A stretch of DNA of 6,943 bases from a virus (taxonomy: Duplodnaviria > Heunggongvirae > Uroviricota > Caudoviricetes). The stretch is from positions 1-6,943 of IMG/VR virus record IMGVR_UViG_648276647_000010, one strand, 5' to 3'. The position numbers and the translations under genes were made by a program. How positions within the stretch are numbered: position 1 is the stretch's first letter; every line of letters starts with the position of its first letter. This document shows positions 991-6,401 of the stretch, in pieces. The notes beneath the pieces are model-generated. The model made no database searches. It was not told the origin of the DNA and saw only the letters and a list, made by a program, of their open reading frames with translations.

Positions 991-1179
991 ATGAAATCAA
1001 TTCGCTGTAAAAACTGCAACAAACTGTTATTTAAGGCGGATTCCTTTGATCACATTGAAATCAGGTGTCCGCGTTGTAAACGTCACATCATAATGCTGAA
1101 TGCCTGCGAGCATCCCACGGAGAAACATTGTGGGAAAAGAGAAGAAATCACGCATTCTGACGAAACCGTGCGTTATTGA
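991..1179 (+). CDS. com: Com, zinc-finger translational activator of mom
   Basis: 62-aa [37 protein letters not shown]... with Cys6/Cys9/Cys26/Cys29 forming the CxxC...CxxC zinc site described for Mu Com. Strong Shine-Dalgarno upstream, and the 3' end overlaps the mom start region as in Mu. Confidence 0.9.
1113..1135 (+). promoter_or_regulatory. mom translation-initiation stem-loop (Com-regulated); sequesters the Shine-Dalgarno and GUG start
   Basis: Perfect 6-bp inverted repeat tcccac (1113-1118) / guggga (1130-1135) around an 11-nt loop ggagaaacauu. The loop contains GGAG (1119-1122) and the stem contains GUG 1130-1132, in frame with the mom ORF. This matches the known mechanism in which Com binds just 5' of a hairpin to unmask mom initiation. 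Confidence 0.55.
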
Positions 1180-1846
1180 GTATGAAGGCCAGATTGTTGG
1201 CTATGGTTCAAAGGAGCTGCGCGTTGAAACCATATCCTGCTGGCTGGCCCGCACAATTATTCAGACAAAGCACTATTCCCGCCGTTTTGTGAATAACTCT
1301 TACCTCCACCTGGGAGTATTCAGCGGACGCGATCTGGTTGGCGTTCTCCAGTGGGGATATGCCCTTAACCCCAACTCAGGTCGTCGTGTCGTGCTTGAAA
1401 CGGATAACCGGGGCTATATGGAGTTGAATCGCATGTGGCTACACGACGACATGCCCCGCAACTCTGAATCACGGGCCATCAGCTACGCGCTGAAAGTTAT
1501 CAGATTACTGTATCCGTCAGTGGAGTGGGTTCAGTCCTTTGCTGACGAACGCTGCGGACGCGCAGGCGTTGTGTATCAGGCGTCGAATTTTGATTTTATT
1601 GGCAGCCATGAAAGCACGTTCTACGAGCTGGATGGTGAGTGGTATCACGAGATAACGATGAACGCGATTAAGCGAGGTGGACAACGAGGCGTGTATTTAC
1701 GGGCTAATAAAGAGCGTGCCGTGGTGCACAAATTTAATCAGTATCGCTACATCAGATTCCTGAACAAGCGAGCAAGGAAGCGGCTAAATACTAAGCTATT
1801 CAGGATCCAACCATATCCAAAATCAATTCTGACTGGTATCAAATAA
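1130..1846 (+). CDS. mom: Mom DNA-modification enzyme (adenine N6 acetamido/carbamoylmethyl modification; acyltransferase-like fold), anti-restriction
   Basis: The ORF immediately follows and overlaps com and has the Mu Mom-like sequence (…[40 protein letters not shown]…). I place the start at GUG 1130, which has a GGAG 7 nt upstream and sits in the regulatory hairpin. The ORF track extends it to ATG 1100, which lacks a Shine-Dalgarno. The exact start and the C-terminus relative to canonical Mu Mom are not verified. Confidence 0.8.
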
Positions 1847-1942: not shown

Positions 1943-1981
1943 TGGGGTGAGTTTTAAAGTCAAAACGATGGTAAGGTGCAT

Positions 1982-2317
1982 ATGAAAAAAATACTCACAG
2001 CAGTACTACTTTGCTTTGGTGTTCTTTCTGCTAATCAGGCAATAGCAGTTGTTACCTTAAGCGGTAAGTATCCAGCATGCATATCTGCTAATGAATTCGA
2101 GCGATTAAGTTCAATTTTGCAACACGAAGATCAAGAAGCATTTGAAGAGATCTTTAAAACATCATGCTTTATGCCTAAAAAGGGGCTAAAAGTTGATAAA
2201 GTGGTTTCTATGGGGTGGACCAGTGGGGTTGCGCATGTCAAAGTTTATGTGAAAGGCAATCTTTACGATCTTTGGACTAACACCGAAAATCTTCAGTCCG
2301 AGAAGGCTGGTAAATAA
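1982..2317 (+). CDS. Hypothetical small secreted protein (Sec signal peptide, ~90-aa mature domain with 2 Cys); AT-rich orphan gene
   Basis: ORF with ATG at 1982 (the track starts it at in-frame GTG 1976) and AAGG at 1973-1976. N-terminus MKKILTAVLLCFGVLSANQAIA is a classic signal peptide with an AxA cleavage motif. GC is about 38% over the first 120 bp versus roughly 50% in the flanking core genes. I recognise no family. Confidence 0.6.
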   Translation: MKKILTAVLLCFGVLSANQAIAVVTLSGKYPACISANEFERLSSILQHEDQEAFEEIFKTSCFMPKKGLKVDKVVSMGWTSGVAHVKVYVKGNLYDLWTNTENLQSEKAGK

Positions 2318-2460
2318 AGCAGTAGTCAACCTGTAATCACATCATCTACCAGCTATCGCCTGATAAAGTTAGGTGATAGCTATTTCAATACTCTCTGGTT
2401 TTACTGGAAGCACGAAACTTAATACTCCCATTCCTGATTGCTTAATAATCAAGCATTTTT

Positions 2461-2526
2461 ATCTTGAATGTTTTTGCTATCACACGCGATAGCCTATCTT
2501 GAATGATTTTCAAAAATATCTTGAAT
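2461..2526. repeat. Three direct copies of ATCTTGAAT(G/A) at 2461, 2497 and 2517, with a GCTATC-N6-GATAGC palindrome at 2476-2493
   Basis: Seen directly in the sequence, in the convergent intergenic region between the orphan gene and the 3' end of opgB. A further inverted repeat AGCTATC-N17-GATAGCT lies at 2352-2382. Confidence 0.35.
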
Positions 2527-2575
2527 AATTTTGCGCGCTTTACGCACCTTATGCGACCTACACATCAGTCAGGAA

Positions 2576-4867
2576 TTACCCTTCACGTTCTACCACTTTA
2601 ATTTCCACCATGCCGATCCCGAGCTTACGCGGCGAGTGCCCGAGGATATTCCCTTCGTTGGTTGAGACAGGTTCCGGCGGCACAATTACCAGTGTGTCGG
2701 CATCGGTTGGGTTATCGAAATGCAGTGTGGTGGTGGTCACTTCATTGCCCAGCACAAGGGTTTGTTCTTCATTGCCTACGCGTACCGGAATAGGACGGCT
2801 GGCGTTATTGCCGTATGCTTTGGCGGTAATCACCAGGTCAAATTTCTTCGGCAGCGGATGCTTGTACTCGATTTTTACTTCATCGCCCAGCTGTGCGTTG
2901 GACCAGCGGCCCCACGACTCTGGACGAGAAATCCCGCTAAACTGTTTCACCTCTTCTGGCGCACCAGCGACGTTAAAGATGAAACTGTCGGCTTTGTAGC
3001 GAATATCGTTATCAACAATCTTTAGCGTATCGACATTGCCTTTGTAACGCGCCATGTCGATGACCGTATCTTTAAATGCCGTTTTGCCCTTCCATATTGC
3101 TTTGTCAACATGCTGAACAATTTGCTGACCGCCAAGCTGCCCTTGCGAGACACACCAGTCGGTGGAGAGTGCCAGTTCCGGAGCCCAGAGTTGTGCCATC
3201 TTGTAGCAACGGTCAACCCAGACGAAATTGTCGCGTGGAGCGAAATCTGCCAGCTGGAAACGCAGCGGTGCTGAGTATTCGCTTTCCGGCAGCGGTTCCA
3301 CGCGTTTGTCTGAAACCCGCAACAGCAGCGGCAAACGGAAATGGCTACCTGAGAAGGCAATCATGTTTTTCTGCTGGTCGATGGTGAACTCTTTCATCTC
3401 TTTAGGGAATTTCCACAGGCGGATGATATCCGGCTTCCACGCCAATGTTTTCTCTTTGATATTGAGGAAGATTTCCGACATTGACTGCCCGGATAAACTG
3501 CTACGGCCAAGTCCGAGATAGTTATCGCCACCGAGAATGTCCAGCACCGTCGCGCCGTTATCCATCGTATTACGCTTCACTGCCAGCGTCTCTTGCTGCG
3601 GCTTGTCGCCACGGATGACAAAAAACAGGTTATTGCGATCCTGCTTATTAAGGTATTTCCACGCCGTATTGTTCATCGCTAAATGGTCAGAAGAGACGAC
3701 GATGACGGTATCTTTAAACCACGGTGACGCTTTGATTTTGTTGATAAACGTCGCAATATTCTCCTGGCTGCAACTTACCGCGCTGAATGACTGATTCGGC
3801 TTACCGTCAAAATCATATTTTTTGCGGTTACAGGTGCGCGAGATAAAACCATCCGGGTGATGGGTATCGACTGTCAGGGTAAACAGTGAGAATCGCTGAC
3901 CTGAGCGGGAAAGCTCTTCAAATTTTTTCCACGCTTCATCGAGAACGGTATCGTCGTAGAATCCCCAGTCGTTGCGATAGTGCGGGTCGGCCACCACGCT
4001 TTTCAGCTCTTCTGAGCCGTATAAGTGGTCGAAGCCGTGCGATTTCAGGAACACATCTTTACCGGCAAAACGCAGATTCGCGCCCTGCACGAAATAGTTC
4101 TGATAACCCGAGTTTTTCAGAATATCGCCCAGACAGATGTTCTGCGGGAAGAAGCTGGAGACAGAGGCGGAGGCGTTGCCTTCAAATGGGGCAAACAGCG
4201 GTATGCCGCACTGAGAAGCTACCATGCCCGCAATCGTGTAATCCGTTCCCGGCAGTTGCTGCGTGTGGCTGAAATCCAGGCCTTCATTTTTCAACGCGCC
4301 CAGTTCAGGCGTGAGATCCGGGAAAGCCTCGTTATCAAAATAGGTCCGCTCGAGACTTTCGCCGTAGATATAAACCAGGTTGAGTTTCGGGTCAGGGATA
4401 GTTCTCGACGGCTCTTTATAATAAGCCGCAAAGTCCGGGTCGCCGTCGCGTGACTGGGATTTCACCAGTTCCGTTATCTGACGAAATGCCGGGCTGGCAT
4501 CCACTGAACCCAGCGCCAGTAAGAGTGCCAGCAGGCTGTAACCAAAATGGTGCGGATGATGGCGACGACGGCGCAGGATCCAGCCCAGCGCACCGAACAC
4601 CGCCGTCAGCCCCAGCACAATGCCGATACCCGGCAGGATGTATTTGCTGACGCCAGCACCGGTCAGGCTGTTGGTTAAGGTATAGAGAACCGCGTCGTTA
4701 ATACCATCGCCAGTAAAATAGTCGCTGGCAAACAGGGTGATATTTAAAACGACAAATAGCCCCAGCACCGTTAACGTGGCTGCAAACCACCAGGTGTTAC
4801 GTCCCGCTTTCCATGCGTAAATCAGCACAGAGGCGAGAAAAAGGGCGAAAGAGAGTAGTTCTGACAA
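2576..4867 (-). CDS. opgB: Phosphoglycerol transferase I (osmoregulated periplasmic glucan biosynthesis; sulfatase/LTA-synthase-like membrane enzyme)
   Basis: 763-aa ORF with N-terminal transmembrane helices ([20 protein letters not shown]..., [15 protein letters not shown]..., [19 protein letters not shown]) followed by a large periplasmic sulfatase-type domain. Length and sequence match E. coli MdoB/OpgB as I recall it, and the position downstream of yjjA-dnaC-dnaT matches the E. coli gene order. Confidence 0.9.
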
Positions 4868-5663: not shown

Positions 5664-6401
5664 TTAATACTCTTTACCTGTTACACGGCTACGGTAGCTA
5701 TCCCAGTTGAAGATCACCCACAAACTGTTACCCAGGCGCATACGGTCCATCACGCGTTCGCCCAGCAACTTGGTCATCTCTTCCATATTACTGTTGGTCA
5801 GCATCCCGGTTGGGCGTTTGGAAGAAGAGCGGCGATCGACGATCTGGTTGATGATCACTTTTTCGTATTTCGATTCGGTCTGCACGCCGATCTCATCGAT
5901 CACCAGCAGATCAACGTTACTCAGATCGTTAAGCAGTTGTTCTTCGCTGGTACCGCTATTCCTGAAGGTATCTTTCATCGCCGACATAATATCGGCCACG
6001 GTGATGATCAATACGGATTTACCGCGTAGCAGCAGCTCGTTGCAGATTGCCGCCGCCAGATGGTTTTTGCCGGTTCCTGGCTTGCCAGAAAAGATGAAGC
6101 TGGCGATGTTGCCGTCAAACTCTTCGACATACTGGCGCGCTTTGCTTAACGCATTCATCTGCCCTTCACACTCAACGCGATAGTTCTCAAAGGAGCAGTT
6201 CTGATGCAGTGGACGAATACCGGAGCGGTTAAAGGTGCGCTGCATTTTCATCGCCCGATTTTCACGTTCGAGAGCGGCGGAGCGGATCGCCCCTTGTTCT
6301 TTCTGCCAGGCCAGTAATTCTTCACCCGTTTTGAACGCAGGTTTGATATGGGCAGGCATCATTTTTTGCAGGCGTTGCATCAGGTCGCCAACGTTTTTCA
6401 T
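5664..6401 (-). CDS. dnaC: Replicative helicase loader DnaC (AAA+ ATPase)
   Basis: 245-aa ORF with Walker A motif GKPGTGKNHLAAAI and Walker B-like LLVIDEIG. The sequence matches E. coli DnaC, and the start lies 2 bp from the dnaT stop, indicating an operon. Confidence 0.95.
   Translation of the reverse strand: MKNVGDLMQRLQKMMPAHIKPAFKTGEELLAWQKEQGAIRSAALERENRAMKMQRTFNRSGIRPLHQNCSFENYRVECEGQMNALSKARQYVEEFDGNIASFIFSGKPGTGKNHLAAAICNELLLRGKSVLIITVADIMSAMKDTFRNSGTSEEQLLNDLSNVDLLVIDEIGVQTESKYEKVIINQIVDRRSSSKRPTGMLTNSNMEEMTKLLGERVMDRMRLGNSLWVIFNWDSYRSRVTGKEY

Follow-up and report, generated by a model that had tools for sequence, protein, structure and literature searches.

What is a dense cluster of direct repeats and palindromes doing between two convergent genes? 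The question was raised by a viral DNA stretch of 6,943 nt (hereafter the window). An orphan gene (ORF 1976-2317, + strand) and opgB (2576-4867, - strand) converge here, as stated in the initial annotation, and both of the GCTATC/GATAGC inverted repeats listed there were recovered (palindromes 1 and 2 in Table 1). The three direct repeats were also found, but their start-to-start spacing was measured as 35 and 22 bp rather than the 36 and 20 bp originally given. Copies of TATCTTGAAT start at 2460, 2495 and 2517, and ATCTTGAAT occurs on the + strand exactly three times (2461, 2496 and 2518), with no further mismatch-free copy in the 6,943-nt window. The repeat unit is longer than a 9-mer: an 18-nt version, TATCTTGAATnnTTTTnn, is shared at 72-100% identity from the same three starts (2460/2495/2517), and each TATCTTGAAT copy forms the conserved core of a unit of approximately 22 bp. 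First-order Markov simulations of 6,943-nt sequences yielded a 9-mer three times within 100 nt in none of 1000 runs with the composition of the whole window, and in one of 1000 with that of the AT-rich island.

Core E. coli homology begins at 2543 in approximately 5,330 of the 5,426 complete genomes, and all three repeats were located within the final 83 bp of the inserted DNA. None of the 5,426 complete E. coli genomes compared holds positions 2300-2600. The comparison with the opgB-downstream region of other E. coli, proposed in the initial annotation, placed the repeats with the prophage: they are absent from genomes that do not carry it, and the empty site downstream of opgB in one of these (L001) is without them. 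The L001 empty-site sequence folds into a 14-bp stem (centroid -23.4 kcal/mol) that is gone from the window version: the prophage inserted into this native hairpin downstream of opgB and broke it. The outermost repeat unit, R1, ends 4 nt before the junction, and the site block directly abuts host DNA.

Three copies of TATCTTGAA at 35/22 spacing, ending in ...GCGCGCTTTA, were also found to terminate Mu-like prophages at unrelated sites. The block was located at fliH, yhfX and vgrG, beside the molR pseudogene, on a plasmid, beside nrfB (nrfA/B) and on two IMG/VR contigs, with all flanks different. Related ends all stop at ...GCGCGCTTTA and then run into unrelated DNA, at least 10 different, unrelated flanks being represented for the right end, several of them inside genes. 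The left ends of the relatives carry three inverted copies (ATTCAAGATA); the inverted-site layout at both ends was checked in five complete or paired relatives. The target-site duplication was 4 bp in each of the four intact prophages, and reconstruction of the empty yhfX site gave a gap-free match of 236/236 nt, confirming the exact terminus. A 5-bp duplication with TG...CA termini was considered and ruled out, the four intact pairs sharing exactly 4 bp and the reconstructed yhfX being gap-free. A candidate left end for STEC388 at 1.966-1.986 Mb was also rejected; because the genome is rearranged, this interval contains unrelated DNA (a Tn7-like element and sil genes), and the left end lies at 2.85 Mb.

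A complete relative of 46 kb (L007) encodes a repressor, a ner-like gene, a transposase with Mu domains, an AAA ATPase, gam, mor, late genes, com and mom. The transposase of the relatives matches Pfam HTH_Tnp_Mu_1 and Mu-transpos_C, has an Ialpha match to PDB 1TNS and contains an integrase-like core. An AAA ATPase (MuB-like) adjoins this MuA-family transposase; neither gene is visible for the prophage of the window itself. No integrase was found in the complete relatives.

Because the same block recurs in these relatives together with inverted left copies, a target duplication and MuA/MuB-like genes, and because the window-type end is found at further loci, the repeats are read, by analogy with phage Mu, as very probably the R3, R2 and R1 transposase-binding sites of a Mu-like prophage attR with its terminus at 2542 (...TTTTGCGCGCTTTA). 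Of the functions originally suggested, recombinase sites thus provide the best fit among sites for a DNA-binding protein, at the expense of arm-type integrase sites and operators. A recombination site at the island boundary was likewise correctly suspected, the repeats occupying the last 83 bp of the insert, but it is no remnant, the end being intact.

Table 1. Sequence features between mom and the host junction, in window coordinates.
Feature	Positions	Strand	Remarks
mom, last conserved Mu-type gene	1100-1846	+	Pfam Mom
Orphan 'moron' gene, 113 aa, signal-peptide-like N-terminus	1976-2317	+	Between mom and the right end
Palindrome 1, 14-bp hairpin	2351-2381	+	34 nt after the orphan stop codon
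Match to canonical phage Mu 22-bp MuA-site consensus, Mu R3 orientation	2397-2418	+	3 mismatches
R3, third putative transposase-binding site, direct orientation	2460-2481		35 bp from R2
Palindrome 2, GCTATCACACGCGATAGC, GCTATC..GATAGC	2476-2493		Overlaps the outer half of R3 and the 13-bp R3-R2 spacer
R2, second putative transposase-binding site	2495-2516		Directly abuts R1 (22-bp register)
R1, terminal putative transposase-binding site of ~22 bp, TATCTTGAATAATTTTGCGCGC (+ strand)	2517-2538		Identical in 9 independent right ends
Terminal tetranucleotide TTTA	2539-2542		Prophage-host junction between 2542 and 2543
Predicted right copy of 4-bp target-site duplication, CGCA	2543-2546		Predicted from relatives
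Surviving half of 14-bp REP-like hairpin downstream of opgB	2543-2565	-	Split by the insertion

Read inward from the terminus, R1 is GCGCGCAAAATT-ATTCAAGATA. Its core, TTCAAGATA, starts 18 nt from the terminus, at the same distance as that of L1 at the left ends; the left-end cores are found at nt 18, 89 and 140-141, and those of the right end at 18, 40 and 75. This core was invariant over 22 distinct site variants, and six of the seven exact TTCAAGATA copies in L007 are located at its two ends. The 22-bp offset of R2 and R1 is kept in all relatives and in the class represented by Yersinia phage vB_YpM_5, and the 35-bp offset of R3 and R2 is kept in all relatives. In the window, R1 and the prophage terminus show no difference from those of complete prophages, and R2 and R3 have kept their cores and spacing.

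The window-type end was found at two further loci, mdtE and a PTS operon. In S. flexneri and in E. coli ECMA0423, mdtE is split by a 204-bp segment of 99.5% identity; in S. flexneri only this relic, cut by IS1, is left. At the second locus, a 663-bp segment of 100% identity adjoins PTS genes on a metagenome contig, and this identical copy at a different place suggests recent movement. Strain 2014C-3075 carries the same segment as a relic with a single site, internal to a true Mu prophage. Positions 1847-2542 (the orphan gene plus the end) had no match among 50,697 phage records, so this segment is in no deposited phage genome. No match to the window-specific sequence from R3 to palindrome 2 was obtained in the IMG/VR scan, and the records examined hold no end annotation for this E. 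coli/Shigella Mu-like prophage family.

The window has neither the transposase gene nor the left end, and the source contig (GCA_000176555.2, GL883893.1) begins inside the prophage, with the left junction on another contig; the window copy may therefore be incomplete or without a cognate transposase. A CGCA duplication directly after the terminus is predicted because the duplication was 4 bp in all four intact relatives. The left junction would accordingly read ...GGTCGCA/TATGAC..., with ...GGTGTGTAGGTCGCA/TATGAC on the lgoD side and inverted ATTCAAGATA sites further inward. The predicted junction sequence (GGTGTGTAGGTCGCATATGA) had no match in the metagenome scan.

The initial annotation held that the interval contains more structure than convergent terminators need. 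This applies to the repeats but not to palindrome 1, for which the simplest reading is a terminator-like or RNA-stabilising hairpin that belongs to the orphan gene and has no good U-tract. Its arms are AGCTATCGCCT (2351-2361) and AGGTGATAGCT (2371-2381), and its fold (-19.8 kcal/mol, z = -6.0) was equalled by none of 200 shuffles. The tail, UAUUUCAAU, has too few U residues, and no call was made by the terminator scan; palindrome 1 is identical in L002. Palindrome 2 folds weakly (-7.2 kcal/mol, z = -2.1; equalled by 10 of 200 shuffles) and is confined to near-identical copies of the window-type end, being absent from L003-type ends, in which the spacer differs, and from the L002 relic. The two palindromes have similar arms of 8-11 nt in inverted order. 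Four of the five GCTATC hexamers in the window fall within a 140-bp stretch; 2.5 copies were expected, and five were reached in 11 of 200 shuffles. When 1900-2900 was scanned for promoters and terminators, neither was detected within the region.

Searches with the orphan protein gave no match in Pfam, PHROGs, NCBIfam or PADLOC. Homologues at 52-70% identity were found in other viral contigs, and in IMG/VR each homologous gene is followed by a hairpin terminator. Further upstream, gin, com and mom are 97% identical to those of Mu, SfMu and D108, gin being the serine recombinase gene that acts as the G-segment invertase of Mu-type phages. Across the mom region the identity to Mu, D108 and vB_YpM_5 is 97% and extends as far as 1821 or 1846. 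The final 12 nt of mom (1835-1846, GGTATCAAATAA) match the core of R3', the counterpart of R3 in the vB_YpM_5 end class. The element is considered mosaic because the DNA upstream of 1846 resembles Mu and vB_YpM_5, whose ends have sites of other classes.

Recognition by MuA of Mu sensu stricto was rejected for the three repeats, which fail the 22-bp MuA consensus and adjoin TA...TA rather than TG...CA termini. The pattern YGTTTCAYTNNAARYRCGAAAR, the 22-bp MuA-site consensus, has its sole match in the window at 2397-2418, with 0.02 expected. In the Mu prophage L009 this site shows 2 mismatches, and the pattern otherwise detects only the true L1, L3, R3 and R2 sites there (0-1 mismatch). The 2397-2418 site is probably a vestige of an earlier Mu-type end. 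Because Mu R3 (TGTTTCATTTGAAG) resembles TGTTTTATCTTGAAT, it was also considered, but not adopted, that the repeats might be diverged + strand copies of the Mu consensus.

Phage Mu carries three MuA sites at each end (PMC3145075, which summarises Craigie, Mizuuchi and Mizuuchi, 1984, for attR). The prophage end in the window resembles Mu attR in the position of its sites at the extreme right end, after mom, in having three sites of approximately 22 bp in a span of about 80 bp, R1 and R2 being contiguous in a 22-bp register, and in the terminator-like hairpin just inside R3. As in Mu attL, the left end has three sites with a long L1-L2 spacer, whose proximal part can be aligned with the Mu one. 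The family also inserts at random, duplicating a short stretch of target, and the relatives encode a MuA-family transposase and a MuB-like ATPase, as does Mu. The inner half-site is W-TTCAAGATA in the window family and RCGAAAR in Mu, the termini are TA...TA as opposed to TG...CA, and the transposase of the relatives is only about 25% identical to MuA. R3 is direct in the window family, whereas in Mu it is inverted, as Craigie et al. are said to have reported in 1984. The duplication is 4 bp in the window family and 5 bp in Mu (PMC5357137).

Yersinia phages vB_YpM_5 and vB_YpM_6 (Muvirus, MT374853 and MT374854) have gin, com and mom 97.5% identical to the window; the paper on these phages gives no description of their ends (PMC10434027). 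The right end of vB_YpM_5 shares the terminal TTTTGCGCGCTTTA and three sites at 35/22, and the left terminus, TATGA..., is also the same, but the inner half-site is GTATCAAAT in place of the TATCTTGAAT of the window, and the orphan gene is missing. The transposase of vB_YpM_5 is 82% identical to that of the L007-type prophages and differs sharply only across approximately aa 60-190 (30-55% identity, against 95-100% beyond about aa 200).

The Mu-like prophages of E. coli STEC346, STEC388, VL40, RM9088 and FDAARGOS_943 and of plasmid pCFSAN004178P_01 belong to the same end class as the window, with R1 and the terminus identical and with the core, spacing and 4-bp duplication shared. These prophages differ in the outer halves of R2 and R3 and in the R3-R2 spacer. 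They have no gin and no orphan gene, neither of the palindromes nor the Mu-type site is present, and a canonical terminator and R3 come directly after mom. Tn7 and CRISPR-associated transposons also have multiple sites of approximately 22 bp (22-bp TnsB sites) for a MuA-like DDE transposase with Ibeta/Igamma-type domains (PMC9371665). They differ in having TnsA, TnsC, TnsD or TniQ, 5'-TGT ends, a 5-bp duplication and target selection, whereas the window family has a phage context with com and mom and inserts at random. Most likely, then, the repeats are an ordinary component of a mobile virus of a familiar type, here in a variant that has been little described and that is characterized by TA termini, a 4-bp duplication, all-direct right sites and mosaic end-site classes.

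On the model of phage Mu, each site of approximately 22 bp would be bound by a single monomer of a DDE transposase of the MuA family. The monomers would pair with those at the three inverted left-end sites to form a transpososome, which would nick after the terminal A and join the ends to the target with a 4-bp stagger. The Ibeta and Igamma subdomains bind the ends of Mu (PMC3362531, PMC5961161), and in the MuA-like TnsB, Igamma and the linker contact nt 5-19 while Ibeta contacts nt 20-30 (PMC9371665). Here an Ibeta-like subdomain probably recognizes the invariant inner half-site (ATTCAAGATA, nt 17-26 from the terminus), and an Igamma-like one probably the looser outer half-site; Ibeta was mapped by position in an alignment of 25% identity, and the Ibeta/Igamma geometry was taken from PMC9371665 and PMC5961161. 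Half-site and transposase covary, the inner half-site of vB_YpM_5 being different and its terminus the same, and its transposase diverging across about aa 60-190. Readthrough transcription interferes with assembly of the Mu transpososome (PMC3145075). The hairpin at 2351-2381, together with a weak hairpin and T-run just before R3, probably stops orphan-gene transcription from entering the end.

A genuine Mu-type end by descent could nevertheless be dead in this copy, its sites unused, either in a recombinant with a Mu- or vB_YpM_5-class transposase or after truncation. The mosaic structure of the right end, with a vB_YpM_5-class core at the mom stop codon and a Mu-class site at 2397-2418, points in that direction, as do the single-site internal relic of 2014C-3075, the IS1-cut 204-bp relic of S. 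flexneri and the location of the left end of the window prophage outside the source contig. However, the host junction falls exactly at the terminal nucleotide of the family, which indicates that the right end was used for insertion. R1 and the terminus match those of complete prophages, the cores and spacing of R2 and R3 are preserved, and a 663-bp copy at 100% identity stands at another locus. On balance a dead end was judged unlikely, though deserving of some weight. If the GCTATC/GATAGC palindromes were instead operators of a dimeric regulator for the orphan gene or for use of the end, four hexamers in 140 bp and shared palindrome arms of 8-11 nt would be accounted for. This was considered improbable, as neither the L003-type ends nor the L002 relic have palindrome 2, palindrome 1 is downstream of its gene in a terminator position, as in the homologues, the half-site spacing differs (9 nt vs 6 nt), and no candidate regulator is nearby.

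Less probable still is a small-RNA locus, also raised in the initial annotation, or a plain convergent terminator pair in which the repeats are incidental. Palindrome 1 does form a very stable hairpin after the orphan gene, and the insertion destroyed the native hairpin after opgB. But the only Rfam 15 match in the whole window at E <= 1 was tsr1, at 18.9 bits against a gathering score of 235, and 1900-2900 contains no promoter-like site. An RNA model also leaves unexplained why the repeats are conserved as DNA at a fixed distance from the terminus, with inverted copies 35 kb away. The least credible explanation was an attachment site used by a tyrosine or serine integrase, with the repeats as its arm-type or core sites or as remnants of it. 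Direct repeats beside an island boundary are typical of arm-type sites, and a serine recombinase gene, gin, is present 1.6 kb upstream; this gene, however, is the G-segment invertase, and the complete relatives encode a DDE transposase and no integrase. At least 10 unrelated targets, a 4-bp target duplication and no shared att core also stand against an integrase.

With the repeats taken as transposase-binding sites of a Mu-like right end, an odd repeat cluster becomes an exact annotation, with a junction at 2542/2543, three predicted transposase sites and a predicted CGCA duplication. End sequences are thereby defined for a Mu-like phage family of E. coli and Shigella. The signature ...TATCTTGAA-N13-TATCTTGAA...TTTTGCGCGCTTTA, with an inverted left TATGAC...ATTCAAGATA, delimits such prophages and their relics, for example that in S. 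flexneri mdtE. The exchanged Ibeta-like region and the exchanged half-site provide a natural test of modular end recognition in MuA-type transposases, which is relevant to the engineering of Mu- and TnsB-based insertion tools. One tentative reading, to which we give slightly less than even weight, is that of a reprogrammed Mu-like lineage, with a transposase of about 25% identity to MuA, TA termini, a 4-bp stagger and all-direct right sites. Its specificity would have been switched between sublineages by exchange of only the Ibeta-like region and the inner half-sites (ATTCAAGATA vs CATTTGATAC). The 700-bp stretch downstream of mom would then preserve, layer by layer, three successive end classes, represented by the vB_YpM_5-type core (1835-1846), the Mu-type site (2397-2418) and the L007-type R3-R1, the last of these being the active one. 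If this is true, transposable phages swap their ends by recombination yet keep Mu-type late genes.

The 9-mer ATCTTGAAT was found on the + strand at 2461, 2496 and 2518, exactly three perfect copies in the whole window. A repeat finder extended each copy to 18 nt (TATCTTGAATnnTTTTnn), with starts at 2460, 2495 and 2517; the three repeats of the initial annotation were thus confirmed, but at start-to-start distances of 35 and 22 bp and not 36 and 20 bp. In first-order Markov simulations, three copies of any one 9-mer fell within 100 nt in 0 of 1000 runs using whole-window composition, and in 1 of 1000 using that of the AT-rich island. Both GCTATC/GATAGC palindromes described earlier were present, the first at 2351-2381 instead of 2352-2382.

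As the initial annotation had proposed, the region downstream of opgB was compared with E. coli genomes (5,426 complete sequences). The window from 2543 onward was matched in essentially all of them, and 2300-2600 as one piece in 0 of 5,426. The empty site in strain Rb-23 (...GGTGTGTAGGTCGCACCTTATGCGACCTACAC..., with lgoD upstream) lacks the repeats; since core homology begins only at 2543, the repeats are part of the insert. They fill its final 83 bp, and the outermost unit, R1, stops 4 nt short of the junction ...GCGCGCTTTA/CGCACC. Between lgoD and opgB, the insertion split a REP-like hairpin with a 14-bp stem (GTGTAGGTCGCA...TGCGACCTACAC) in the upper part of that stem (window 2543-2565; 5990-6020 in the empty-site locus L001), and a terminator structure of opgB was probably lost through it. 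A preference for such palindromes as targets has been reported for some transposable phages (PMC5977238). The source scaffold GL883893.1 (GCA_000176555.2; L010) starts 2 nt before the window, within the invertible G segment/tail-fibre region of the prophage, so that the left end and transposase gene of this copy fall outside the scaffold, and the predicted left junction of this insertion was not recovered in a metagenome scan.

Features of the window, of the host loci carrying the same end, and of related prophages
Feature	Location	Details
Tail-fibre gene 3' end	left part of window	inserted Mu-type DNA
gin	315-908	Mu-type phage gene
com	991-1179	Mu-type phage gene
mom	1100-1846	Mu-type phage gene
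Orphan gene	1976-2317 (+)	
Palindrome 1	2351-2381	GCTATC/GATAGC; 14-bp hairpin, -19.8 kcal/mol, z = -6.0
Repeat unit R3	2460-2481	read as transposase-binding site
Palindrome 2	2476-2493	GCTATC/GATAGC; marginal fold, -7.2 kcal/mol, z = -2.1
Repeat unit R2	2495-2516	read as transposase-binding site
Repeat unit R1	2517-2538	read as transposase-binding site
Core stretch	from 2543	opgB 3' flank, opgB, yjjA, dnaC, dnaT
Host locus, strain STEC388	fliH	
Host locus, strain STEC346	yhfX PLP enzyme gene	
Host locus, strain VL40	vgrG gene	
Host locus, strain RM9088	adjoining nrfB	
Host locus, strain FDAARGOS_943	adjoining molR pseudogene	
Host locus, strain 06-00048	plasmid	
Prophage pairs behind TA termini and 4-bp duplication	L007 10847 and 46091 (STEC346); L016/L013; L018/L015; L019/L005	
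STEC346 prophage regulators	L007	CI-type repressor, ner-like HTH protein
STEC346 prophage transposase	L007	695 aa; Pfam HTH_Tnp_Mu_1 + Mu-transpos_C
STEC346 prophage AAA ATPase	L007	MuB position
STEC346 prophage, other genes	L007	gam, mor, Mu-type head and tail genes, com, mom

The tail-fibre 3' end, gin, com and mom of the window are ~97% identical to Mu, SfMu, D108 and Yersinia Muvirus isolates. Positions 1847-2542, holding the orphan ORF and the repeats, matched no deposited phage genome. The orphan product (113 aa) has a Sec-type signal-peptide-like N-terminus (MKKILTAVLLCFGVLSANQAIA), and no family was assigned to it in the four libraries searched. Homologues (52-70% identity) were found in unrelated IMG/VR phage contigs, each with a hairpin terminator after it; phage 'morons' are typically arranged in this way, and the orphan is therefore a mobile gene of that kind.

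A sensitive search with 1847-2542 recovered the terminal 50 bp of the insert in seven other E. coli genomes, each at a different place. Every matching copy was the right end of a Mu-like prophage, located after com and mom and interrupting a host locus. Three TATCTTGAA copies with 35/22 spacing were present in all these ends and in two IMG/VR contigs, and all the ends terminated in TTTTGCGCGCTTTA with unrelated sequence beyond. In strain 06-00048 the right-end flank on plasmid NZ_CP012497.1 (136 kb) and the left end were also located in chromosome record NZ_CP015229.1 (1823872-1925310), 101 kb apart and permuted (right, then left); this distance equals the plasmid length minus the prophage, and the arrangement may be an integrated plasmid or an assembly artefact. 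The two prophage ends were likewise far apart in STEC388 and FDAARGOS_943, which suggests rearrangements at prophage copies.

Exact 4-bp flanking repeats (ATTC, TATA, TAAG, TTCA) were found in all four prophages with both junctions intact. Removal in silico of the STEC346 prophage and one ATTC restored 236 nt identical, without gaps, to the uninterrupted yhfX of many genomes; the termini are therefore TATGAC...CTTTA and the duplication is 4 bp. The true Mu prophage in ddpA of strain 2014C-3075, which has Mu attL and attR, gave TG...CA termini and a 5-bp duplication (TTCAG) when analysed likewise. In both Shigella flexneri SFBU1023 and E. coli ECMA0423, the multidrug efflux membrane-fusion gene mdtE is interrupted by a 204-bp relic (203/204 identical to 2339-2542), cut on its inner side by IS1, which replaces the rest of the prophage (L020 5365-5594; L021). 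In a metagenome contig, 663 bp 100% identical to 1880-2542 extend to the same terminal A, where E. coli PTS IIB/IIC genes take over. The end in the mdtE and PTS copies includes both palindromes. Joining of the window-type end to at least three different targets at exactly the same nucleotide is a hallmark of insertion by a transposase.

The block of repeats forms the conserved end of a transposable prophage. Among the options offered in the initial annotation, sites for a DNA-binding protein agree with this result, the repeats being most probably recombination sites that a transposase binds. A recombination site at the island boundary was correctly placed, but it is not a remnant, the phage end being intact; arm-type sites and a small RNA give way to probable transposase sites of that intact end. 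That the prophage end in the window is nevertheless now dead we consider unlikely.

The STEC346 prophage is complete (~35 kb). Its transposase matches the MuA Ialpha structure 1TNS at the N-terminus and retroviral integrases in the core; MuA- and MuB-type proteins are thus encoded in relatives. The left end of this prophage starts with TATGACTAGGTAATTTATTCAAGATAACCGGG and carries three motif copies in opposite orientation, and six of the seven exact 9-mer copies in the 46-kb locus lie at the two ends. Five left and nine right ends yielded 22 distinct versions of the site, all with the core TTCAAGATA unchanged. Counted from the left terminus, this core starts at nt 18, 89 and 140-141; counted from the right terminus, it starts at nt 18, 40 and 75. 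The terminal site is therefore equidistant from both tips, and R1 and R2 follow one another without a gap, in 22-bp register. The spacer between left-end sites L1 and L2 begins with a stretch (AACCGGGAGGA.ATTGGA....CGGGAT.TGATGGGAT) that aligns with its counterpart in Mu attL. Homology of these ends to the Mu ends follows from this, although the sites have diverged.

In Mu, three differently spaced MuA sites are present at each end, and the right end follows the last gene (PMC3145075, PMC5977238). Ends of the class shared by the window and STEC346-type prophages have the same layout, with three sites per end, unequal spacings and a right end after the last gene. Unlike Mu, however, their repeats fail the MuA consensus, their termini are TA...TA and not TG...CA, their target duplication is 4 bp and not 5 bp (PMC5357137), R3 of the window is direct, and the transposase of relatives is ~25% identical to MuA. 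A Mu end in the strict sense is ruled out by these five differences. By position, architecture, mobility and associated genes, the block belongs to the broader class of Mu-type transposable-phage ends, and by analogy it would work like Mu attR. One transposase monomer would bind each of R1, R2 and R3, the bound monomers would synapse with L1-L3, and the subunits at the terminal sites would make their cuts 3' of the terminal A and link the ends to target DNA 4 bp apart. No description of ends of this class was found; the vB_YpM paper is silent on ends, and the records examined, that of vB_YpM_5 included, carry no annotation there.

Palindrome 1 lies 34 nt 3' of the orphan stop codon; the related segment of strain 2014C-3075 carries it unchanged. 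Given this position and the hairpin terminator after each homologue, it is most simply the terminator or 3' stabiliser of the orphan gene; it has no good U-tract and was not called a terminator by the scan. A weak hairpin with a U-run (2439-2460) immediately precedes R3. At the equivalent position a canonical terminator is present in L003-type prophages (relatives whose right ends have neither the orphan gene nor the palindromes), and a short inverted repeat, read by eye from the sequence, in Mu. Assembly of the Mu transpososome is reported to be disturbed by readthrough transcription (PMC3145075), which provides a rationale for these hairpins. Palindrome 2 runs from the outer half of R3 into the 13-bp spacer before R2. 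The fold is weak and absent from ends other than the window type, and its arms resemble those of palindrome 1 in inverted order.

Homology to vB_YpM_5 reaches the mom stop codon at 1846, and the last 12 nt of mom (GGTATCAAATAA) match the core of R3', the R3-equivalent site of that phage. The canonical 22-bp Mu consensus for MuA sites has exactly one match in the window (2397-2418, +, 3 mismatches, 0.02 expected), 15 nt after palindrome 1 and in the orientation of Mu R3, with a counterpart at 46186-46207 of the 2014C-3075 locus L009; the same consensus recovers the true L1, L3, R3 and R2 of the Mu prophage with 0-1 mismatch. Lying in an end built on another site class, the window match may be vestigial or serve as an accessory site. 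With R3, R2 and R1, traces of three end classes are therefore present in the 700 bp after mom. In the Mu prophage of strain 2014C-3075 the orphan segment is flanked by a variant mom on one side and by the last 15 nt of Mu mom on the other, with an intact Mu attR beyond (L009 45669-46400 = L002 5550-6330), and it ends in a single fused site (TATCTTGAATGTTTTTGCGCGCTTTA) joined to those 15 nt. The arrangement seems to be left over from recombination, or nested insertion, involving a window-type phage and Mu, with what looks like a later 57-bp deletion between R3 and R1. In a relative, contig L023 (IMGVR_UViG_2636415416_000005), the terminator-R3-R2-R1 module is the same, but the cargo preceding the terminator (330 nt before the end) is not mom. 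Immediately inside the right end there seems to be a hot spot for accessory genes.

Phage vB_YpM_5 (L011) shares the terminus (TTTTGCGCGCTTTA and TATGA...) and the 35/22 layout, with GTATCAAAT as inner half-site in place of TATCTTGAAT. Its deposited 'circular' genome (MT374853.1; L011 1755-1836) holds ~82 nt of non-phage DNA between the right terminus ...CTTTA and the left terminus TATGAAG..., which presumably stems from packaged host DNA and was linked in during assembly. The transposases of the STEC346 prophage (L007 12060-14147) and vB_YpM_5 (L011 3031-5124) are 95-100% identical from ~aa 200 on and only 30-55% identical across ~aa 60-190, a stretch that comes after the Ialpha match and that, by position in the 25%-identity alignment, would correspond to the Ialpha-Ibeta linker and Ibeta of MuA. 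Bipartite end sites are recognised by Ibeta and Igamma in MuA (PMC3362531, PMC5961161), and in the structurally similar TnsB complex Igamma and the linker cover nt 5-19 from the end and Ibeta nt 20-30 (PMC9371665). From this geometry and the positional match, the invariant ATTCAAGATA at nt 17-26 is probably an Ibeta-type half-site. The aa 60-190 region and the inner half-site (ATTCAAGATA versus CATTTGATAC) appear to have changed together while the termini did not, and this looks like a natural exchange of an end-recognition module.
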